Assembly: GCA_002788675.1 (NCBI GenBank)
Contig: PFRS01000004.1
Span: 1 to 49,170, forward strand
Origin: Candidatus Pacebacteria bacterium CG_4_9_14_0_2_um_filter_40_15
GTDB taxonomy: Bacteria > Patescibacteriota > Microgenomatia > UBA1400 > PJMF01
Reading direction: 5' to 3'
Length of the DNA stretch: 49,170 nucleotides
Position numbers and translations under genes: made by a program. Of this stretch, positions 1 to 9,548 are shown piece by piece (positions within the stretch are counted from its first letter, which is position 1; every line of letters starts with the position of its first letter). The notes beneath the pieces were generated by a model, which searched no databases, was not told the DNA's origin, and worked only from the letters and a program-made list of their open reading frames with translations.

Positions 1-133
1 CTACCGTACTTTCCATTTTTCGGGTAATCTGGATATTTTGTATCTGCTATTATTTTTTTTTGCTACTTACTACTATGCGCAAGGCATATTTTGCACCAGC
101 TCCTTTTTTTATAAAAAAGGGAGGGTTCAAAAG

Positions 134-162
134 AAAAAAGCCCCGTTGGTACGGGGCTTTTT
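134..162 (-). terminator. Intrinsic terminator downstream of rplT (probably bidirectional)
   Basis: AAAAAAGCCCCG-ttggta-CGGGGCTTTTT hairpin with A/T tracts on both sides. Confidence 0.8.
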
Positions 163-184
163 ATATTTACTTTTTTAGTTTTGG

Positions 185-538
185 TTACCCACGTACCTTA
201 GAGACTAAGCTTTTAAAGGCACTAAAGTCGGCGATAGCAAGTTCAGATAACATTTTACGGTTAAGCTGAATGTCTGCTTTCTTTAAAAGGTTCATGAAAC
301 GTGAATAGTTAAGTGTTTCGTCAGCTTCTTTTACAGCTGCACTGACACGTAAGATCCAAAGCTTGCGCATGTCTCTTTTACGAAGTTTGCGTCCGATGTA
401 GGCATATTGGCCTGCATGAAGGAGTGCTTCACTTGCTCTTTTGTAGAGTCTGTTATTAGTACCGCGGAAACCCTTAGTGAGTTTGAGTACTTTCTTATGT
501 CGTCTGTGGCGGGTTACGCCTGTTTTTACTCTTGGCAT
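185..538 (-). CDS. rplT: 50S ribosomal protein L20
   Basis: MPRVKTG..RHKKVLKLTKGFRG, RKRDMRKLWILR, LNRKMLSELA motifs; infC-rpmI-rplT order. Confidence 0.98.
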   Translation of the reverse strand: MPRVKTGVTRHRRHKKVLKLTKGFRGTNNRLYKRASEALLHAGQYAYIGRKLRKRDMRKLWILRVSAAVKEADETLNYSRFMNLLKKADIQLNRKMLSELAIADFSAFKSLVSKVRG

Positions 539-565
539 GATATATATTCCTCTTCTGTTCTATTG

Positions 566-781
566 TTATGCAATTCCAAGCATTCGCTTGATTTTCTTTG
601 CCCACTTTCCAGTGACTTCAACTGGCTTTCGGTAAGCTCTAATTGCTTTTTTACTTTTAATACGACGTCTGTGTCGCATGTTTTGTGAACGTCGAAGAAC
701 TTTACCGGTAGCGGTAATTTTGAAACGCTTGGCTACACCAGAGCGAGTCTTCTGTTTCATTTTTGTCTTCATTTTTTGCAT
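566..781 (-). CDS. rpmI: 50S ribosomal protein L35 (true start may be a downstream Met)
   Basis: KQKTRSGVAKRFKITATGKVLR motif; between infC and rplT. Confidence 0.95.
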   Translation of the reverse strand: MQKMKTKMKQKTRSGVAKRFKITATGKVLRRSQNMRHRRRIKSKKAIRAYRKPVEVTGKWAKKIKRMLGIA

Positions 782-795
782 GATTTGACCTCTCC

Positions 796-1335
796 TTATT
801 TTTTCGATGGCATAAGTTGCGCCATGAGCTTTTTGCCCAACATCTTTGGTTCGACCTCGACTGTAGCAATTTCTGATGTTTCAGAGATTACACGATCGAA
901 TATTTCATATCCAAATTCTTTTTTAGTAATTGCACGTCCTTTAAACATAAGTGAAAGTCGAACTTTGTCGCCTTTTTCAAGGAATTTCTTCACTTTATTT
1001 AAACGTGCCACCAGGTCGCCTTCTCCCATAAATGGTGAAAAGCGAACTTCTTTTAAGTCCTGAGACTTTGCTGTCTTACGGTTTTTTGCTTCTCGTTGCT
1101 GTTCTTGATACTTGTATTTAGCAAGATCAATAATTTTAACAATGGGCGGTTGAGCTTTTTCATTGACTAAGACTAAGTCTTTATCAACTTCGCGGGCTTT
1201 TTCTAAGGCTTCTGCCTTAGTCATGATGCCCAGCATCTCTCTTTGTTCTGTTAACACTCTTACCTCGGTTGCCCGAATGAATTCATTAACTGCAATTCGG
1301 TTTTTTCTCGAGTAATTTGATTTGTTGTTTTGCAC
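796..1335 (-). CDS. infC: Translation initiation factor IF-3
   Basis: NEFIRATEVRV, DLVLV..AQPPIVKI..KYKY, KEVRFSP, GDKVRLSLMFKGR motifs; exact start uncertain (GTG). Confidence 0.97.
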   Translation of the reverse strand: MQNNKSNYSRKNRIAVNEFIRATEVRVLTEQREMLGIMTKAEALEKAREVDKDLVLVNEKAQPPIVKIIDLAKYKYQEQQREAKNRKTAKSQDLKEVRFSPFMGEGDLVARLNKVKKFLEKGDKVRLSLMFKGRAITKKEFGYEIFDRVISETSEIATVEVEPKMLGKKLMAQLMPSKK

Positions 1336-1622
1336 TATTATGTGTATAACTTTCTGAAGCCTGTGTTCTAACAGACTCGTATTTTACCGTACCTCCACGA
1401 AAAAACCAAACGATCTTTTCGCGGAAGTTGGATTATAGCATCTTTCTTGAGGTAAGGGAAGTGTGTATCATGTTGCACATGACTCAAAAAAGCATCTCTC
1501 CTCATTTTTTAAATAAAAAGTTCCTAGCCATTGCAGAGTTTAAAAAGTATGTCCAGACTTTATATCCTTCTATGGTGTTCATTGAGAAGTACTCTTTCTG
1601 GCGATTTAACCTTAGCAGAATC

Positions 1623-1649
1623 AAAAACACCTCGCCTAAGCGAGGTGTT
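1623..1649 (-). terminator. Intrinsic terminator for the 1672-2073 gene
   Basis: AACACCTCGC-ctaa-GCGAGGTGTT hairpin with T tract on the minus strand. Confidence 0.75.
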
Positions 1650-1671
1650 CTAGTTTTAATTTTGGAGTTGG

Positions 1672-2073
1672 TTACTCTTCAACTTCAGTTTCAACTGTTT
1701 CAGAAACATCTTCTGCAACTTCAGTTGCTTTGATGTTTTTGATTACTAACATTTCGATAATAGTATCGAGTTTTTTAGTAAGAGTTGCAAATTGTTGTGA
1801 GTAATCAACTTGTGGTGCTTGAGGTCGACTTGGTCTGTCTGAAAAACTTCTCTTGCTAGAGAAATCTCGGCCACCGCCACGGTTGTTACCGCCGCCTTGA
1901 CTCTCGAAACAGTCACTACAAAATACTGGTTTGCCACTTGATGGCATGAAAGGAACTTTACAGTGACTTCCACATTTTGCACAAGTTGCGTCATGCATTT
2001 GTCTATCAGATGAGCCTCTTCGATCGAAATCTCTGCCACCTCTATTACCACCACCTCTGTTGTTGTCGTACAT
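1672..2073 (-). CDS. CxxC-x17-CxxC zinc-ribbon protein with Gly/Arg-rich flanks
   Basis: MHDATCAKCG..CKVPFMPSSGKPVFCSDCF motif. Confidence 0.85.
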   Translation of the reverse strand: MYDNNRGGGNRGGRDFDRRGSSDRQMHDATCAKCGSHCKVPFMPSSGKPVFCSDCFESQGGGNNRGGGRDFSSKRSFSDRPSRPQAPQVDYSQQFATLTKKLDTIIEMLVIKNIKATEVAEDVSETVETEVEE

Positions 2074-2212
2074 ATTCTTTTCTTGTGTAGCCCCCGGCTA
2101 CGTGCTTTGTATAAGGTGTAAGTATAGCATGAAATAGCTTATAAGTATATGAGGGGTGATGTTTTCAGGGTTTGAACAGTGGAAAAGGATTGAGTTATGC
2201 TACTTGTTTAGT

Positions 2213-2365
2213 TGAAGGCTCGGGAGGACTTCTCGCTCACTTCGTTCGCTGCGAGATGCTCGTGCTTGAGGAGGCTAACGCGATTTACTACTCGCATAAC
2301 GAACCATAGCCTCTCTCCTACCCCAATTCACACATAAAAAAACACCCTTTGGGTGTTTTCTCTGT
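2213..2365. repeat. tRNA-3'-end-associated structured mini-element including the original tRNA-Val terminator
   Basis: Degenerate tRNA-Val end TGAAGGCTCGGGAGGACT (2213-2230); hairpins TCTCGC/GCGAGA and GAGGCTA/TAGCCTC; terminator AAAACACCC-ttt-GGGTGTTTT. Confidence 0.55.
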
Positions 2366-2367
2366 GT

Positions 2368-2508
2368 GAACTAGGAGGAACAAAGCTTGAACTTTTTGCA
2401 TCATTGAAACAAGCGATTATTTTGCATTGGGAGTTGCGGGATCTCGATATGCAGATTTTTTCTGATGCAAAGGAATATAGTGGTTTCGTTGACTATTTTA
2501 AGTACTGA
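2368..2508 (+). other. Displaced 3' end of the recombinase gene (46 sense codons, in frame after att joining)
   Basis: GAA CTA GGA GGA ACA AAG CTT ... AAG TAC TGA, open in the frame set by the recombinase's GGT GAA CT at the core. Confidence 0.65.
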
Positions 2509-2605
2509 TACCTATAGAGATAGTGAAATCCTGTTTCCTTACAACTGAACAAATGCAACTTTTTAGCTTGGGAGACACTGTTCAATACTGGACAGCATTT
2601 TGCGC

Positions 2606-2637
2606 TTGAAATAGTTATACAAAATGTATATATTTCA
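2606..2637 (+). promoter_or_regulatory. Sigma70-type promoter of the retron-like operon, overlapped by an imperfect palindrome
   Basis: TTGAAA(2606)-17 nt-TATATT(2629); TGAAATAgtTATAC-aaaat-GTATATATTTCA. Confidence 0.55.
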
Positions 2638-2640
2638 GCT

Positions 2641-2950
2641 GTACCTTAATATTATTACTTTAAATCCCGTAGCGCTGTTCTCGATACAAGACACTCGTTT
2701 GTCTCAAACTCATTTCTCAAGTACAGAGAGATAAGACTTCAACCAAGCACTAATTATATTTGCTTTTTTTGCTTATTTGGTGACACTGATCTGTCAACAT
2801 GGTCTAGATCTATAGAGGCGACCACTTTGCGTGAGAACATATGGGCCGTGTTTATGACGTGTCACTCTACCTTTACTAAGGTAAGATCCAAAGAAAGGAA
2901 TACCCAATATGGCAGAAACACAAATAAATTCTTTTATTAAAGTAGTAGTA
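2641..2950 (+). ncRNA. Putative retron msr-msd-like structured RNA
   Basis: 14-bp long-range stem 2650-2663/2937-2950 (two G-U pairs); inner stem 2666-2682/2833-2845; several local hairpins; directly upstream of HTH-RT. Confidence 0.7.
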
Positions 2951-3073
2951 AGTGTGTCGCCCTTGAGGGTGTTACGAGATGCAGTATTTACTGTTTATCG
3001 TACGGATTTTCAGACTTATTTTCTGGATTTTCCGTTTATTAGAGTCGCTCAGACGCTAGTAAGCACCCTCTAA
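2909..3073 (+). CDS. 54-aa small protein, putative retron effector (absent from the ORF track)
   Basis: AAAGGAA Shine-Dalgarno, then ATG; MAETQINSFIKVVVSVSPLRVLRDAVFTVYRTDFQTYFLDFPFIRVAQTLVSTL; stops 35 nt before the HTH gene. Confidence 0.6.
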   Translation: MAETQINSFIKVVVSVSPLRVLRDAVFTVYRTDFQTYFLDFPFIRVAQTLVSTL

Positions 3074-3108
3074 CTCACTAATATCAGAAAAAATTTTATC
3101 TAAAAACT

Positions 3109-3432
3109 ATGTATTCACTTCCAAATTTTTTAAAAGCATTTCGTAAAGCAACAAACTCTTCTCAGGCTGAGTTTGCAAACTTTCTGAATGTTTCAACAGT
3201 TTTAATATCAATGATCGAGTCACAACAAAAACAAGCATCAAAGAAGTTCATTGAAAATCTAGCAAAAAAAATTGATGTGCATCCTGGAGCTCTTGCATTA
3301 TTTTATTATAATGATGAAGACAGAGAGAGATTAACAAAATTAGAGAAGGAACTTGTTAATATTGGCACAGAATTACAGAGGAAAATTATTTTAAAAAGAG
3401 CAAAAAGCATTAAAATTAATGAAAAAAAATAA
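3109..3432 (+). CDS. XRE/Cro-C1 family helix-turn-helix protein, RT-associated
   Basis: LKAFRK...SQAEFANFLNVSTVLISMIES HTH pattern; 14-nt overlap with the RT gene. Confidence 0.85.
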   Translation: MYSLPNFLKAFRKATNSSQAEFANFLNVSTVLISMIESQQKQASKKFIENLAKKIDVHPGALALFYYNDEDRERLTKLEKELVNIGTELQRKIILKRAKSIKINEKK

Positions 3433-4390
3433 CTACCCACAGTTTGGCATTCGTAGTAAAAATGAATTAGCTAAGCGTATTAGTTCAAAATCTTTACCAG
3501 CTAATGAGGCTCTTATTTTAATAAATGATGTACTTGAAAACCATGAGGGATACTGGAAGGACAGTAAAATGTCTGAACCTGAAAAGGGTAAATATGTCCG
3601 TTCATGTGTTGGAACTCCACTTCATAGATTACTGAACCTCATCGATAAGAGAATACTTAGACCTTATGACAAGTTAGCGCCCCACTTTATTTTTGGTGGA
3701 TTATCAAAAAAAAACCATATCCAAGCTGCTCATTATCTTATTGGTTCAAAAAAAAGAAGGTCTCTTATCAAACTTGACATAAAAAGATTCTATGAACAGA
3801 TCACACAAGAAAGAATTTTTTATTTTTTTTATAAAAAAGCAGGTTGCAGTGTTAGGGCATCTAGACTACTTGCATATATTTGTTGTGTTACCCAAGGTGC
3901 AAAAGGGAATCCCGGTGTTCAAAGGGTTTTAGCTCGCGGCTTTTCTACGTCTTCTCGCCTGGCTGTCTGGGCTAATCTTGATACTTTTTTGAAATTGAGA
4001 TGGAAATTGCAAGCTGAGCTTGGGAAAAATGATCCCAAAATTGCAGTGTATGTTGATGACATTGGGATTTCTGTGGCTGATGTGTCACAGACAAAATTAG
4101 AAGAGATTGCATTAATGATGGCTGAGATTCTCGAGTCATCTGATGCAAATCAACCTTTGCCTATTAATAACGAAAAATTAGATATTATGAGTTTTGAAAA
4201 GAATGCAGAGCACTTAGGTCTGAGGCTAGGGAGAAAAGCTATTTTTATGGGTAACAAGATTATGTCAAAGATTCGTAAGATTAAAAATGACTACCAAAGA
4301 GCTGAAAATAATACAAAATTTAAACTAATGAGTAAGAGAATTGCATATCGTCTATATCAGAAACAAATTGATAAACAAAATGAACAGTAG
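3419..4390 (+). CDS. Reverse transcriptase, divergent retron-like
   Basis: LDIKRFYEQI, LARGFSTSSRLA (PQG-equivalent), catalytic YVDD, INNEK, HLG; 323 aa with no maturase or nuclease domain. Confidence 0.9.
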   Translation: MKKNNYPQFGIRSKNELAKRISSKSLPANEALILINDVLENHEGYWKDSKMSEPEKGKYVRSCVGTPLHRLLNLIDKRILRPYDKLAPHFIFGGLSKKNHIQAAHYLIGSKKRRSLIKLDIKRFYEQITQERIFYFFYKKAGCSVRASRLLAYICCVTQGAKGNPGVQRVLARGFSTSSRLAVWANLDTFLKLRWKLQAELGKNDPKIAVYVDDIGISVADVSQTKLEEIALMMAEILESSDANQPLPINNEKLDIMSFEKNAEHLGLRLGRKAIFMGNKIMSKIRKIKNDYQRAENNTKFKLMSKRIAYRLYQKQIDKQNEQ

Positions 4391-4433
4391 ATATGTGAGT
4401 GACATGAACAAAATTTCAGAGATTATCGCCTTT

Positions 4434-4955
4434 TTATTTTTTGTCCAAGCTAAGTTTTTTCAACATTGCTTTATCAGCTTTTGCAGTAAGTCTTTTTTCA
4501 ATTGTCTCTGATTTTATTTCGTTTTCTCTATTTTCTTCAAAAACAGGTTGTAGATCTTCAAGATACTTCATACTGATTCTGTTAGAAAGAATGCTTTCTT
4601 GCGCATTTAACCATGCAGCATAGTCTTGTAGTACCATAGCTGTTTGTTTAATATCAAACTTGAATTTTTCTTGTAGGTGGATATTTAATCCAGATATTTT
4701 TTCTTGTTTTAAACCGACTTCGCTGATTTCTCCCACTCGCCTATTGTATTCCTTTTGCCCTCTCATTTTGATCATGATTTCGCTGCTCTTTTCGATATCA
4801 TCAAGAACATCAGCTAAAGATTCTTTAAACCGCTGTTCACTTCTAAAAACATAGTCGGTAATTTTTTCCATTGCTTTCTGAGGTTGTTCACTCGCCCAAT
4901 TTTGAAGCAAGCCGTATGCAATAAAAATTATTACTAAAACAACAACAATTTCCAT
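4434..4955 (-). CDS. Hypothetical protein with N-terminal membrane anchor and helical body
   Basis: 173-aa ORF with hydrophobic N-terminus. Confidence 0.75.
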   Translation of the reverse strand: MEIVVVLVIIFIAYGLLQNWASEQPQKAMEKITDYVFRSEQRFKESLADVLDDIEKSSEIMIKMRGQKEYNRRVGEISEVGLKQEKISGLNIHLQEKFKFDIKQTAMVLQDYAAWLNAQESILSNRISMKYLEDLQPVFEENRENEIKSETIEKRLTAKADKAMLKKLSLDKK

Positions 4956-5288
4956 AGAATCCCTTTTCTAATAGCTTCTTTGGATTATTTAGTAGCTATT
5001 CTATATTAGAACCAATTATACAGTAGTACTGTCTTATTACGATTTTGACTAAGAAGCAATAGAACTTTTTGACACACATGATGTACAACTCTGCTACTGT
5101 AAAGTGATATTCTTTACAGAAAACAACTTATAGTGTATGCTATAAATCTGTCCAGCACCCACTTATATCTCAACTTTGTTGTGATATGTCCAGGGTGCTT
5201 TTTTGTAGCATTTTTGCTGTTACATAGCAGGTGTAATGGAGATAAGGACTTGTATTATTAAAACTGCATTTAAATCTATAACAAGTGC

Positions 5289-6029
5289 ATGGAAGGAATT
5301 ATGAAAATATTTATAGATGAGTCAGGCGACCATAATCTTGACTCGACAAAGTTGGATAATAGCTACAATGTTTTCGTGCTGGGAGCAGTATGTTTTTCTG
5401 AAGATAACTATCAGTTACTTTGTGAGAGGCTTAATCAGATAAAGCAAGACCTATTTGGTGGCAAAGATTACATAATTCATACAGCTGAGATTGTTAGACC
5501 AAGCAATTCTACAGATCCACGAACACAATTATTCAATAATATAGATTTCAGAAATACATTTTATTCAACAATAGAGAATATTTTTGACGAAATCAATTTT
5601 GAAGTGATTGCTTGTTGTGTTAAGAAATCACAGCATCTTGAGAGATATGGAGCATATGCTAGTGACCCGTACATATTTGGTTTTGAAAACATCTTGAATA
5701 GAATAATGTGGAGGTCAAAAGGTGAAAAATGTGAGATATACCCTGAAAAAAGATCTCAAGCTGAAGATGGATTGCTTGAAATTAATTATTTAAAAGCAAA
5801 AATGTCGGGCACGAAGTTTTTTACTGGTAGTCAGGTATCCGCTAGAATTGAGACTTTTAAAACAATTGATAAAAAAGCTAATGAGTGTGGGTCACAGATT
5901 GCGGACCTAGTTGTAAGTCCGATTGGAAGACATTTTATGGGTATCAAACCTAGAAAACCGGGAAATGAACTTAAATATCAGACTGTTAAGCGAAAAATTC
6001 CAAATAGGTGTCTCACTGTGTTTCCGTAG
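5289..6029 (+). CDS. DUF3800-like protein (RNase H-like acidic motifs)
   Basis: N-terminal IFIDESGD, FVLGAV, C-terminal QIADLV. Confidence 0.85.
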   Translation: MEGIMKIFIDESGDHNLDSTKLDNSYNVFVLGAVCFSEDNYQLLCERLNQIKQDLFGGKDYIIHTAEIVRPSNSTDPRTQLFNNIDFRNTFYSTIENIFDEINFEVIACCVKKSQHLERYGAYASDPYIFGFENILNRIMWRSKGEKCEIYPEKRSQAEDGLLEINYLKAKMSGTKFFTGSQVSARIETFKTIDKKANECGSQIADLVVSPIGRHFMGIKPRKPGNELKYQTVKRKIPNRCLTVFP

Positions 6030-6030
6030 A

Positions 6031-6105
6031 AATAAAAAAAGAGCCCCCGCTCCGCAGTGACTCTTTATTACATGTATTCTATTATATTTTTATGCTTTGC
6101 GTCAA
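6031..6105 (-). ncRNA. Possible tiny antisense transcription unit convergent on the DUF3800-like gene
   Basis: Minus-strand TTGACG-18-TAGAAT followed by hairpin AAAGAGTC...GGCTCTTT and a T tract. Confidence 0.35.
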
Positions 6106-6181
6106 TATCAATATTTATTACTCAGAACGTGCGGTTTTATCGGGTATTTCTGTGGGACATTTAGTGCTGTTTTTATTTCGT

Positions 6182-6391
6182 TTAAAAACCCAAAAGTTTT
6201 GAAGCGGTACTATCCAAAGCTTTAGTGAGCTTTTTGATAGTTTTTATAGTAGAGTTGCTATTTCCAGACTCAATAAAACGAATTGTTCTCACATCTCGAT
6301 CAATTTGGTATGCCAGTTCCTCCTGAGAAAGCCCGAGCGCTTTTCTTCGCGTCCGAACATTTTCACCAAATACCTGAAATATACTTCCCAT
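6182..6391 (-). CDS. XRE-family HTH regulator (controller-protein-like)
   Basis: FGENVRTRRKALGLSQEELA...IESGNSN. Confidence 0.9.
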   Translation of the reverse strand: MGSIFQVFGENVRTRRKALGLSQEELAYQIDRDVRTIRFIESGNSNSTIKTIKKLTKALDSTASKLLGF

Positions 6392-6464
6392 ACAGCAAGA
6401 ATATGAGATAATGACTTGGAATGACAGGAAATATATTACCTATTCTTGCATATGTTAAATACAA

Positions 6465-7091
6465 ATGAAAACAAATAGACTAATTTTTCAACTACTTGGA
6501 TCAATAACTGAGTTTTTGTTAGATGATGAAACATGGAAATTGTTTGGTTACAAAAAAAGACCTAAGCGTGGAGCAATTTTTTCAAGACTATTTCCTAAAA
6601 AATATGAACTTGATAACTTTATATTCAGGCATTTTTTCATACTTGGAGTTATTGATGTACTAAATGGAATTAAAAAATCAAAACAGTCGGATTATAATAA
6701 GACGATTGTGATTCTAAACTTTTTTGAAGAAGTGGATGTGTTATCAAAGAACACTGATTGTTTGACTGACTTATTAAAAGACCTACCAACAGCATACGAC
6801 ATATACAAAGAATCAAATCCAAAGAATCTTTATGAGCCATATTTAAGTAAATCGGAAAACGTCCTTGGAAGTACAAATTCAGCAAGATTTCTGATTGGCA
6901 TATCAAAAATTCAGTTTGAACGAATGTTAATGGATATCAGTGCTAAAGACTTTTTCCTTTCTTCAGATCGTGTTGCTGAATTAATAAACACCCAAGACAT
7001 TGCAGCTGTTAAAGAAGATTTGACAGGCTTTTCAAAAGAAACATTAGAAGAGTATGGAAAATTCATATCAAAACTAATTTCCGAAATTTAG
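6465..7091 (+). CDS. Hypothetical protein
   Basis: 208-aa ORF divergent from the HTH gene; no recognised motif. Confidence 0.7.
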   Translation: MKTNRLIFQLLGSITEFLLDDETWKLFGYKKRPKRGAIFSRLFPKKYELDNFIFRHFFILGVIDVLNGIKKSKQSDYNKTIVILNFFEEVDVLSKNTDCLTDLLKDLPTAYDIYKESNPKNLYEPYLSKSENVLGSTNSARFLIGISKIQFERMLMDISAKDFFLSSDRVAELINTQDIAAVKEDLTGFSKETLEEYGKFISKLISEI

Positions 7092-7188
7092 CTCAATTTC
7101 TTGCGAACATCCAGAGTTTTCTTTAGAGTCATGTGTGCGGAGTATTTAGATAAGGCAGGATATCTGTTCAGAGCGTATAATATTTGAT

Positions 7189-7776
7189 ATGCCAGAGCTT
7201 TTTGTAGACAGCAACGATGAGAACGCAATTAAACAACCATTTGGAATTTGGATTGCTTCGCTAGTAGTATTTTTTATTTCAATTTTCTCATTAGCAAGCG
7301 AGCAGCTTGTGGTTTTCATATTTGGATTTTTACTCGTAGCTTCATTTGTTGTAGGAGTAATTGCATTTATTATTATGGTTGTGAGAGTAGTTAGAACTCT
7401 TTTAAAGAATGAATCTTTCAAGAGTGGGTTGGGTTCTGTTATTTCTTATGGAGCTTTTATTATTTTTGGACTTTTCCTCCTAAGAGGTTGTACTTCAAGT
7501 GGAAGTAGCAGCAGTGGCGGAGGAAGATATTATGATGATTACGATAGCTACGATTACTATGAAGAACCTGTAACTAGTGATAGCTGGGACTGTACAAGTG
7601 ACTGTTCTGGACACGAGGCAGGGTATGAATGGGCTGAGGACAAAGGAATCACAGATCCAGACGATTGTGGTGGCAATTCTGATTCATTTATTGAAGGCTG
7701 TGAAGCATATGCAAATGAATACAATATGGACAATTATGATGAAGAGTATTATGACGATTATGATTATTACTATTAG
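7189..7776 (+). CDS. Membrane protein with Cys-rich acidic C-terminal domain
   Basis: About 3 hydrophobic helices, then CTSDCSGHEAGYEWA...DC..SFIEGC and a Tyr/Asp-rich tail. Confidence 0.8.
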   Translation: MPELFVDSNDENAIKQPFGIWIASLVVFFISIFSLASEQLVVFIFGFLLVASFVVGVIAFIIMVVRVVRTLLKNESFKSGLGSVISYGAFIIFGLFLLRGCTSSGSSSSGGGRYYDDYDSYDYYEEPVTSDSWDCTSDCSGHEAGYEWAEDKGITDPDDCGGNSDSFIEGCEAYANEYNMDNYDEEYYDDYDYYY

Positions 7777-7805
7777 TGTGACAATAAGCGCTTATTTTTA
7801 GCCTG

Positions 7806-8417
7806 TTAGTTGGAAATAGTTTCATCTAATTCCCAGACTCCATCTTCGTTAGCTGTTAGTACTTCTTCTTTTTCAAGCTTGTAGCTAGATAGTTTCTCTT
7901 CTAAATCAATATTCCATTTGTAGTAAGAAAAAAGTTTAGTGTCATATGAAATGCTAGATAATGTAACGATATCACGAAAACCATTCGTTAATTCATCCTC
8001 TACTTGGTAAACAGTGCCATCAAACTGTCCAACAACATACCACTGATCATCAACTTCCATTAGTGCCACAATTACTCCATTGCCAGATGCAGTTCTCAAT
8101 GTTACACCACATATTTCCCATGGATAGACTAAGTACTCATTCTTTTGATCATCATTCAGATCGACTTCCTCAATTTTAAAGTCGTGAGGAGTCTGCAATA
8201 CATCTGCTGAAGAACAATTTCCATGCTCTGTTGTAGTGAGAACGTGTTGTAATACTAAGCTGAGTGCGTCTTCGGGGATTTCGACTTTTGATTCTGAAGT
8301 TACCACAGCTATTTCTCTCTGATTGCTATCAAGAAGGATTTGTTCATTTTGAAAGTACTTAAAAGCAAAAAGGCCTGCTATGGTAGCCAAAAAAATCAGT
8401 GCTAAAGATGTACGCAT
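7806..8417 (-). CDS. Exported or membrane-anchored hypothetical protein
   Basis: Signal-like N-terminus; DLNDDQKNE Ca-binding-like loop. Confidence 0.75.
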   Translation of the reverse strand: MRTSLALIFLATIAGLFAFKYFQNEQILLDSNQREIAVVTSESKVEIPEDALSLVLQHVLTTTEHGNCSSADVLQTPHDFKIEEVDLNDDQKNEYLVYPWEICGVTLRTASGNGVIVALMEVDDQWYVVGQFDGTVYQVEDELTNGFRDIVTLSSISYDTKLFSYYKWNIDLEEKLSSYKLEKEEVLTANEDGVWELDETISN

Positions 8418-8618
8418 GTTCTTCTTTCTTTGTTCACTAGTCTGGCACTATCTTAGCACAGCTTGCTATGTTGCAACTTATAGGCGAAGTGCGCAACTTG
8501 ATCAGGAAGTAGAAGCTTGATTGTTGAGATAGATGACCCCTCCTTGTAGGAGACCCACCCTTAAGGAGTTGCTGTATCTATACAAGTAGCTTGATATGTA
8601 TGCAGTCCATTTGTGAGA

Positions 8619-9548
8619 CTAGAACCTAAAAATCATCACTCTCAAAATAGTAGTTAACATTTTGTTGTTAAGTAATTCATCCCAAAAGGAACTACTTTGT
8701 GCTTCAGAATTCAAGTCCGCTACATCTTCATTGAAGCTATCTTCAACTTCAGCTTCGACAGTAACTTCTTGAACTGTTGGGCTTGAAGTCGGGCTAGGAT
8801 CAGGTGCGGGGGTTGGTGCTAGTACTGTGTGTGTTCTTTTCTTTGTCTGACCTGGCACTGAAACTGTTAGTGTATAGGTTGTCTCTTTTTCAGGATTAAC
8901 AATAACACGTCCCTCTTTGATTTGTGTTTGAGTTAGGTTTCCAACTTCAGGAGTAATTGAGTAGCTCGCACCACATTTTGCAACAAATTTAAGTTCTGTA
9001 GTTCCATCATCAAGCTTGTAGGAATTAAACCTGTTTATTGCTATCTCAGGCTCTGGTACATCCACTTCCCAATTGTAGACGCCACTCCAACCACAAGAAT
9101 TTCCGCCTTTTACATTAACATACCATTTTCCTGGAGCAACGTCATTGAAAGTAACGCTTCTTGTTGTTGTATCAGCAACTGGACCCGGGTCGGCGCCTGC
9201 CGTTTTTGATAATGCGACACTATACTCATTGTCGCCAATACCTTTGTCCCAAGTAAAAGTAACATCTTGCTTGCAATCAACTTCTTTGAATTCAAGGCTA
9301 CCCTTAGTATCGCTCAAGTTTGGTTTGTTACAGATAGGTGCAACGTATGTATTCTTTGTTGGTTGGTATGCTGATCCACCATTGTGGTAGTGATACGTGC
9401 CAGCACATGATCCAACGTTACAATTATGCCCACCTGATGAATCTGTTCTGCCTGAATGAGCAAGAGCACTCATGGATGAAGAAAACAAGATTACTAGAGA
9501 AAGAATGAGGATATTTTTGATTTTTGAGTACATAATGTATTTTACCAT
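8619..9548 (-). CDS. Secreted YHYH-motif protein with beta-rich domains and Pro/Thr linker
   Basis: Signal peptide ending ALA-HSGRTDSSGGHNC...TYHYHNGG. Confidence 0.8.
   Translation of the reverse strand: MVKYIMYSKIKNILILSLVILFSSSMSALAHSGRTDSSGGHNCNVGSCAGTYHYHNGGSAYQPTKNTYVAPICNKPNLSDTKGSLEFKEVDCKQDVTFTWDKGIGDNEYSVALSKTAGADPGPVADTTTRSVTFNDVAPGKWYVNVKGGNSCGWSGVYNWEVDVPEPEIAINRFNSYKLDDGTTELKFVAKCGASYSITPEVGNLTQTQIKEGRVIVNPEKETTYTLTVSVPGQTKKRTHTVLAPTPAPDPSPTSSPTVQEVTVEAEVEDSFNEDVADLNSEAQSSSFWDELLNNKMLTTILRVMIFRF

Follow-up and report, generated by a model that had tools for sequence, protein, structure and literature searches.

A divergent Type VI retron in a Candidatus Pacebacteria genome and the competing conserved folds of its predicted hybrid RNA

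Which RNA is encoded upstream of the reverse transcriptase (RT) gene in the genome of Candidatus Pacebacteria bacterium CG_4_9_14_0_2_um_filter_40_15, and from which of its bases could reverse transcription start? The window analysed here is the whole stretch of 49,170 nt at positions 1 to 49,170 of contig PFRS01000004.1 (GCA_002788675.1, a genome assembly of 1.22 Mb in 10 contigs). The region in question, 2641–2950, had been described from the letters alone (the original prediction) as a nested retron-like fold with an outer clamp, an inner stem and a priming G at 2672. We consider, with a probability of roughly 70%, that this region makes up the structured 5′ portion of a hybrid RNA (hyRNA) belonging to a Type VI retron, that this RNA has two mutually exclusive folds, and that the fold pairing an a1-like with an a2-like arm is the form from which the RT would start.

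On the basis of gene order and profile matches, the operon is a Type VI retron consisting of an RNA leader, a small open reading frame (ORF), a helix-turn-helix (HTH) gene and an RT gene.

2641–3108, + strand: predicted hyRNA of about 468 nt, a structured leader plus the small ORF, both ends placed by inference
2909–3073, + strand: small ORF of 54 codons, candidate small-protein (SP) toxin, with the Shine-Dalgarno-like GAAAGGA at 2893–2899
3109–3432, + strand: Cro/C1-type HTH protein of 107 amino acids (PADLOC HTH_VI, 7.6e-13; Pfam HTH_3, 1.2e-6)
3419–4390, + strand: RT of 323 amino acids with a YVDD motif (PADLOC RT_VI, 2.6e-27; Pfam RVT_1, 6e-10)

Among the PADLOC models, RT_VI matched the RT with 93.8 bits over residues 6–321, and the second-best model, RT_II-A, with 51 bits. 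In comparison with classical retrons, the NCBIfam model of retron St85 gave only a partial match of 47.5 bits, below its cut-off of 235. The characteristics of a Type VI retron found here are an RT of the Type VI clade according to profile match, an HTH gene overlapping the RT gene (by 14 nt) and a small ORF before the HTH gene; the assignment of the RT is one by profile scores and follows the classification of Mestre 2020 as cited in preprints. Rfam gave no match at E values up to 1 in the searched span 1–9000, which covers 2100–3100, and the small ORF had no match in Pfam; its product may be toxic, by analogy with those of Retron-Vpa2 and Retron-Sen3. About 1 kb without long ORFs lies between a zinc-finger gene and the small ORF, and what annotation leaves as a 1-kb "non-coding" gap 5′ of the HTH gene contains a predicted promoter, a structured RNA and a 54-codon gene. 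The Type VI operon, together with the co-varying nested helices described below, bears out the view that the + strand encodes a retron non-coding RNA (ncRNA). The original prediction did not include the Type VI identity or the fact that the clamp's 3′ arm falls within the conserved small ORF; its retron RNA, nested fold and competing helices hold in outline, whereas its priming G and its copy start are not supported.

Type VI is a retron type whose RNA was unknown until 2025. In the preprint of Zhang et al. (10.1101/2025.10.22.683967), the gene order given for Type VI retrons is ncRNA, SP, HTH and RT, and Retron-Vpa2 of Vibrio parahaemolyticus has a hybrid RNA of ~470 nt with three arms, namely the msr-msd, the SP's ribosome site together with its start codon, and the remaining SP coding sequence. 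The same preprint states that the DNA of Vpa2, 63 or 86 nt long, comes from the long stem-loop of the first arm and is scarcely made at rest, that the HTH protein represses reverse transcription, and that SP translation needs the DNA. A Vpa2-derived covariance model of the hyRNA has also been published, and 81 loci have been reported. For Retron-Sen3, the preprint of Garcia-Rodriguez et al. (10.64898/2026.04.27.721009) describes a conserved ncRNA no more than ~280 nt from the SP start; it has terminal inverted repeats and, internally, a variable stem-loop. The SP coding sequence is described there as subject to RNA structural selection, and the authors propose alternative long-range pairings. 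As reported in both preprints, a Type VI retron of Candidatus Levybacteria gave no detectable DNA in E. coli. The main texts of the two preprints do not name a priming site or branch base for Type VI, and that of Zhang et al. mentions priming only once, for the a1/a2 region.

Relatives of the RT were collected for comparison. A phylum-wide sample of 401 genomes, this genome included, contained two other RT matches with 49% identity, and a search with the alignment of the three RTs brought up 4 species-genome loci and 40 loci on metagenome contigs, their identity being 40–55% except for one 99% copy on another contig (L045). The four loci in species genomes are from metagenome-assembled genomes labelled Saccharibacteria, Wolfebacteria, Magasanikbacteria and "uncultured bacterium". 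An HTH gene was found upstream of the RT in 38 loci, and the 39 upstream regions obtained with the present locus were collapsed to 27 distinct ones, which come from small-genome bacteria resembling the candidate phyla radiation. An ATG-started small ORF of 44–61 codons, ending 4–35 nt before the HTH start, was present in 26 of these 27 loci (two of the ORFs read longer from an upstream ATG), the sole exception being L008, whose RT is the closest relative with 55% identity. The extent of the hyRNA given above rests on positional homology with the 27 distinct loci. In the family, the RNA is arranged in the order of promoter block, leader, 5′ arm of the clamp (P1), a1-like arm (X1), (U/C)CGA, two hairpins (H1 and H2), variable segment and alternative-fold domain (P3/P4), followed by an AT-rich stretch with the ORF start, the 3′ arm of P1, a conserved motif of the ORF and a coding-sequence hairpin. 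At the present locus these parts are as follows.

2650–2663, + strand: 5′ arm of the clamp P1, found by inverted-repeat search and covariation
2666–2682, + strand: a1-like arm X1, with CCCGTA at 2666–2671, a GCGC bulge at 2672–2675 and TGTTCTC at 2676–2682
2681–2684, + strand: TCGA motif, (U/C)CGA in the family, located where the a1-like helix ends on its inner side
2689–2704, + strand: msr-like hairpin H1, AGAC...GUCU here, with the family consensus AGAU...AUCU
2709–2735, + strand: msr-like hairpin H2, at ~2712–2732 in minimum-energy folds
2737–2779, + strand: variable segment of 43 nt, candidate core of the msd template
2780–2865, + strand: alternative-fold domain, with P3 at 2780–2786/2859–2865 (GTGACAC/GTGTCAC) and P4, that is X2/X′, at 2797–2804/2844–2851
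2833–2845, + strand: a2-like arm X′, GAGAACA at 2833–2839 plus TATGGG at 2840–2845, pairing with X1
2937–2950, + strand: 3′ arm of P1, inside codons 10–14 of the small ORF
2964–3070, + strand: long hairpin lying within the small ORF and forming the hyRNA's third arm (42 pairs at minimum energy)

Because helix registers shift between lineages, we used a register-free test, in which the best duplex energy of a segment with its own (cognate) partner was compared with the energies obtained with the partners of other lineages, the spans being set by alignment anchors. The test was made with 17 representatives, from which near-duplicates and the loci L013 and L014 had been omitted, and with 12 representatives after further omitting L008, L017, L018, L030 and L040. 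With the 12 representatives, the cognate and non-cognate energies were −11.22 and −5.18 kcal/mol (means) for P1, −15.45 and −9.41 kcal/mol for X1/X′, −23.03 and −13.62 kcal/mol for X2/X′, and −6.90 and −4.12 kcal/mol for P3, and for each helix 0 of 20000 permutations were as low. With the 17 representatives, the sums of ranks were 34 for P1, 42 for X1/X′, 24 for X2/X′ and 61 for P3, on a scale of 272 where chance gives 136. Four control pairings in the same RNAs (variable segment and ribosome-site region; leader and the stretch following P3; 5′ arm of P1 and X′; X1 and 3′ arm of P1) had near equal energies, and 2232, 6595, 7502 and 18799 of 20000 permutations were as low; since these controls stand at chance, base composition is excluded as the cause of the helix preference.

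The clamp P1 was confirmed base by base. It has 14 nt with 86% complementarity in the repeat search, and, as had been claimed, its only non-Watson-Crick pairs, U2652–G2948 and U2655–G2945, are G–U pairs, which would be A–C on the − strand. The preference for the + strand is found also in the folding of 2641–2950 as a whole (z of −2.59 with 3 of 100 shuffles as good, against −1.12 with 14 of 100 for the − strand). P1 is the longest uninterrupted helix of Watson-Crick and G–U pairs in 2641–2950, and none of 200 dinucleotide shuffles reached 14. Its cognate duplex at this locus has −12.7 kcal/mol, against a mean of −1.9 kcal/mol with 16 foreign partners, none of which was as good. The arms have changed together elsewhere, for example to CAATTC/GAATTG, CCAAATTGAGA/TCTCAGCTTGG, CAAGTTA/TAACTTG and GGTTTAACT/AGTTAAACC. 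The covariation across loci that the original prediction had proposed as a check is found for the clamp in the cognate preference given above, and by this covariation P1 ties the leader to codons 10–14 of the small ORF.

Inside P1, the inner stem CCCGTA/TATGGG (with one G–U), the GCGC bulge and the TGTTCTC/GAGAACA helix lie exactly where they had been drawn, and the arms co-vary with their partners across the loci; the cognate complementarity of P1, X1/X′ and P3 at this locus is as good as that in the homologs. X1/X′ encloses the two msr-like hairpins and the variable template-like segment, which is the general retron arrangement of a1/a2 inverted repeats around msr hairpins and template. In H1, A-G-A is invariant in 24 of 24 homologs and the fourth pair is altered on both sides in two homologs; in H2, 5 of 6 modelled pairs are altered on both sides in the family; the column score of H1/H2 is 0.301 against 0.200. 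The variable segment measures ~50–230 nt in homologs and mostly folds into a long hairpin of its own, and it may be the template, as judged by analogy with Retron-Vpa2 and Retron-Sen3. From this arrangement we infer which helix would act as a1/a2 in priming, namely X1/X′.

The a2-like arm has a second conserved partner: in the P3/P4 fold X′, with its 3′ neighbour 2844–2851, is paired with X2. The best X1 and X2 duplexes overlap by 6–14 nt of X′ in all 16 representatives compared, and as far as comparison of the lineages can tell, the X1/X′ and P3/P4 folds exclude each other. Column counts point in the same direction as the partner-swap test: P4 together with the ORF arm, counted on the columns of a plain MAFFT alignment, is 82.2% paired, 23 of 32 pairs being altered on both sides; the score is 0.387, whereas shuffles give 0.217 (0 of 500) and slid controls no more than 0.133. 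P3/P4 scored 0.348 against 0.201 on a model-fitted alignment (A4), which still holds three reverse-strand hits. On alignment A5, which comprises 24 of the 27 regions (L008 being unalignable and the 5′ ends of L013 and L014 lying beyond its 560-nt span), P3 is not countable owing to gaps.

The two folds differ in stability. Unconstrained full-length folds of the 16 representatives had P3/P4 in 12 and X1/X′ in 4, and P1 was present in 8 of them. The RNA 2641–3108 reached its minimum of −117.6 kcal/mol with P1, H1, H2, P3, P4 and the ORF arm and without X1/X′; forcing the inner stem gave −112.1 kcal/mol, a penalty of 5.5 kcal/mol, and the minimum-energy fold of the fragment 2641–2950 likewise has the clamp without the inner stem. 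Because the inner stem is costlier to this extent and both folds are conserved, the nested fold of the original prediction appears to be one of two conformers, the less stable one: all its helices exist and its stems co-vary, but its inner stem is missing from the unconstrained minimum-energy fold. Among its small hairpins, those at 2689–2704 and ~2712–2732 occur in minimum-energy folds, whereas those at 2781–2796 and 2800–2824 occur only when the inner stem is forced.

The alternative pairings mentioned in that prediction fared differently. GTGACAC/GTGTCAC, our P3, belongs to the conserved alternative fold, whereas TACCTTA at 2642 and TAAGGTA at 2877, although present in the sequence, pair at the level of chance (sum of ranks 161 of 240, chance 120; 18799 of 20000 permutations as low). 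A switch by competing helices, as had been proposed, is nevertheless plausible since the a2-like strand can pair with either upstream segment in 16 of 16 lineages; it is the TACCTTA/TAAGGTA helix that is unsupported as part of it. This doubly co-varying strand is the most interesting lead at this locus. We put forward, as a speculative proposal and with the odds against it, that a conserved bistable RNA switch gates priming by holding the partner strand of a1 in the more stable X2/X′ helix. If this is true, the switch could explain the near absence of DNA from Type VI retrons before a trigger and would couple DNA synthesis to the release of small-toxin translation, and the a2-like strand with two partners, if real, would offer a testable mechanism by which reverse transcription is held off at rest.

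A mechanism can be outlined largely by analogy with Vpa2. The RNA would start near 2641 from a palindrome-bearing promoter and end just before the HTH gene. At rest, the P3/P4 fold would sequester the a2-like strand and with it the start site; the a1/a2-like X1/X′ fold would be the form from which the RT starts, copying from ~2832 leftwards through X2 and the variable segment. The DNA product, or the refolding, would then free translation of the small toxin ORF, the presumed effector, and the likely targets of the HTH protein are the promoter palindrome and, as in Vpa2, the complex of RT and RNA. As a separate observation on the start codon, an imperfect 25-nt inverted repeat (2757–2781/2902–2926) joins the variable segment to the small-ORF start codon; the minimum-energy fold of this locus makes use of it, its AUG region being paired with 2757–2779.

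From which base, then, would copying be primed? In classical retrons the priming G directly follows a1, and in Ec86 it stands directly after the stem in a TAGC context. The original prediction took CCCGTA/TATGGG with the clamp as the a1/a2 stem, G2672 as the branch point and ~2839 as the position from which copying starts. Its geometry is like that of Ec86 and its helices exist. The G, however, sits in the 4-nt GCGC bulge, which splits the a1-like helix only at this locus: the equivalent internal loop reads AA, AAC, A, C and AA in L009, L005, L018, L006 and L037, and contains a G only in L040. Copying would moreover begin inside the helix of 2833–2839, a part of the a2-like arm that is paired in homologs and co-varies with 2676–2682. 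We therefore regard this model as quite improbable, and the same holds for G2672 or G2674 as the priming base. The best candidate is G2683 in the TCGA motif, preferred over G2672 because of the classical geometry and of conservation, 22 of 24 homologs having the G and 21 of 24 the full CGA; it is a tentative choice, which may well prove wrong. G2690 in the invariant AGA of H1 is a G in 24 of 24 homologs and is also paired, and it is an unlikely priming base.

The evidence on the helices also bears on other ways of reading the locus. P1, as the outermost conserved helix, might itself be the a1/a2 stem, with a G just after 2663 priming and copying from ~2936, so that the DNA would be antisense to the ORF start and ribosome site. 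The terminal inverted repeats of Sen3, which include the ribosome site, and its DNA of ~112 and ~145 nt (10.64898/2026.04.27.721009) are in keeping with such an arrangement; the DNA of Vpa2, on the contrary, maps to the stem-loop of the msr-msd arm plus 23 nt and not to the ribosome-site arm (10.1101/2025.10.22.683967). The alignment, furthermore, has no conserved G right after the 5′ arm of P1, and X1/X′ flanks the msr-like hairpins more tightly, so that we judge P1 rather unlikely to be the priming stem. A template in the hairpin at 2965–3070, which would leave only msr and leader in 2641–2950, is highly improbable. This hairpin is the longest and most stable of the locus (42 pairs) and co-varies, but it is wholly within the conserved small ORF, has a near-constant length in the family whereas retron templates vary, and has no a2-like partner on its 3′ side at this locus; both preprints treat this arm as coding sequence subject to RNA structural selection and not as template.

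The leader might alternatively be only a translational regulator of the small ORF, a decayed retron RNA that is no longer reverse transcribed. The family models barely recognise this locus, as detailed below, and the Type VI retrons tested in the preprints, including that of Candidatus Levybacteria, gave no detectable reverse-transcribed DNA (RT-DNA) under standard conditions. Against such decay, the RT is full length with its YVDD motif, the HTH gene and the small ORF are intact, the complementarity of P1, X1/X′ and P3 is as good as in the homologs, and a 99% identical copy is present on another contig; we assign very little credence to it. The reading of 2641–2950 as the 5′ part of a Type VI hyRNA, with X1/X′ as the starting form, is the one that we keep.

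Several results weigh against this preferred reading. A covariance model of TCGA-H1-H2 built without this locus scored the locus with only 4.7 bits (E 1.2), and a P3/P4 model, which had this locus in its seed, with 15 bits (E 0.0028), both in 801-nt searches with filters off, while default filters gave no match with either; the TCGA-H1-H2 model finds 24 homologs, including two held-out loci. RNAalifold gave no consensus pairs on the MAFFT alignments of the 5′ domain and of the P3/P4 domain, and on a narrower alignment only 4 bp at the foot of H1, a failure that we attribute to alignments that are too divergent and in which this locus is misaligned. The column count of P1 on the plain alignment is weak (56.8% paired against 51.2% in shuffles), with slid controls of 0.163 and 0.153 against 0.179. 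In most homologs the G of TCGA pairs with a C in the a2-like arm, and L009 has a C in this column with a matching change in its partner, a pattern as compatible with a conserved base pair as with a branch point. L008, whose upstream region is unalignable to the family, comes last in each helix test, and its small ORF is broken (in its span 2330–2684 the family frame is interrupted and another frame is open); it may be a copy that has decayed or been remodelled. A pairing between 3′ tail and 5′ end as in Vpa2 is nearly absent here (−1.9 kcal/mol) and weak in the family (266 of 20000 permutations), and the pairing of 2757–2781 with the start-codon region is not conserved, without cognate preference in the family. 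Finally, these conclusions are drawn from sequence comparison and predicted folds.

The locus can also be placed among known systems. Retron-Eco1 (Ec86) has its RNA upstream of the RT on the same strand, with a1/a2 around msr and template hairpins and a G at the inner end of a1. The present RNA resembles it in lying upstream of the RT, in its inverted repeats around hairpins and in the G at the inner a1 end; unlike that of Eco1, it runs on into an ORF, has an extra outer clamp and has an a2-like strand with a conserved competitor, and abundant DNA at rest is not expected, as far as the Vpa2 work can be taken as a guide.

The likeness to Vpa2 is one of architecture, compared by the description in the preprint. 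It includes the operon order, an RNA of ~470 nt with an msr-msd-like part and a small ORF, a coding-sequence arm, inverted repeats joining the arms, and a variable long stem-loop as the presumed template. Unlike in Vpa2, where the 3′ tail pairs with the 5′ end, the leader here pairs instead with the N-terminal codons through P1, and the host is a small-genome groundwater bacterium. The 7-nt direct repeats, which lie in the template loop and the riboregulator loop in Vpa2, have a counterpart in AGATCTATAGA near 2807 and AGATCCAAAGA near 2884, which was not confirmed as co-varying (2547 of 20000 permutations, not significant). Sequestration of the start codon is predicted here as well, but by a non-conserved pairing. 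In one homolog, L037, the extreme 5′ end, from the −10 hexamer to the leader motif, and the 3′ tail near the small-ORF stop, in the spacer that follows this ORF, form 14 pairs with −18.9 kcal/mol, and this pairing is strong also in L006, L010 and L032.

With Sen3 and cl2075, as the preprint describes them, the locus shares a conserved ncRNA that lies within ~280 nt of where the small ORF begins and carries terminal inverted repeats, an internal stem-loop that varies in length and may be the template, a small ORF whose RNA structure is under selection, and proposed alternative long-range pairings. It differs in that the basal stem of Sen3 holds the ribosome site, whereas the 3′ arm of the clamp here lies 28 nt inside the ORF; the conserved stem-loop that Sen3 has upstream of its 5′ repeat and the IR1-IR2 pair flanking its ORF were not found at this locus, and the small-protein family differs, with only weak similarity; the comparison with cl2075 is by description. 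The locus is thus a divergent addition to the Type VI retron hybrid RNAs already described, and together with ~26 other distinct loci it constitutes an independent and very divergent set for Type VI RNA, in which the same plan of leader, embedded toxin ORF and structured coding arm recurs.

The coding arm is itself well conserved as RNA. Its closing stem is 100% and 81.7% paired with 7 of 10 pairs altered on both sides, its inner hairpin is 76.5% paired, and 14 of 21 pairs of the arm are altered on both sides; this locus forms 8 of the 10 closing pairs. A small-ORF coding sequence that is a conserved folded arm is a feature of Type VI hyRNAs. In the homologs, the small proteins have in common a motif near (L/V)P(Y/F) and a C-terminal end reading V-(T/I/A)-(A/V/T)-(L/P), both of which overlap the two closing-stem strands, so that constraints on the protein and on the RNA are intertwined here.

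The 5′ end of the hyRNA is placed according to the promoter.

2606–2634, + strand: sigma-70-like promoter, TTGAAA at 2606–2611, a 17-nt spacer and TATATT at 2629–2634

The scan gave 10 of 12 matches to the hexamers at this site, in a region where promoter-like sites are not in excess (4 found, 4.1 expected by chance). The site is the best-conserved upstream block in all homologs, the conserved promoter block of the family consisting of a TTGACA-like hexamer, a palindrome and the −10 hexamer. The predicted transcript start is ~2639–2642; the leader at 2641 opens with a GCACTTTAA-like sequence as in the family, and 2641–2950 is then the 5′ two-thirds of the ~470-nt hybrid RNA. The palindrome TATAC-N5-GTATA lies at 2616–2630 between the −35 and −10 hexamers; 32 of the 47 fetched loci carry it, once each and in an equivalent position, and it is a likely operator candidate for the HTH protein. 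Also noticed was an inverted repeat of 12 nt without mismatch at 2455–2466/3083–3094, whose second arm falls in the spacer that separates the small ORF from the HTH gene; as an end pairing of the Vpa2 type it was set aside, its 5′ arm lying ~150 nt upstream of the conserved promoter, and repeats as long as 12 nt arise in 13 of 300 shuffles.

The genes and other features around the retron are the following.

within 1–5000, − strand: rplT, rpmI and infC
1672–2073, − strand: CxxC zinc-finger protein
4434–4955, − strand: protein of 173 amino acids without family match, convergent with the RT gene
5289–6029, + strand: DUF3800 protein (Pfam, 1.8e-11; weak PADLOC PDC-M04A match, 2.4e-4)

Public sequencing runs containing the stretch numbered 24, all of them DNA and kept as contigs, and they are groundwater or aquifer metagenomes except for one under a coded label; four of the 24 (X21–X24) were compared with the stretch and had no variant letters, joints or ends. 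Between the zinc-finger gene and the promoter, the interval 2210–2360 had no match in Rfam and contains only ORFs of 41–51 codons, of which the one scanned was without family match. This interval includes a G+C-richer patch at ~2215–2300, followed by a hairpin at 2339–2359 (AAAACACCC/GGGTGTTTT) with T runs on either strand, which looks like a two-way terminator. On the other side of the retron, the 173-residue protein and the DUF3800 protein may form with it a small defence island.

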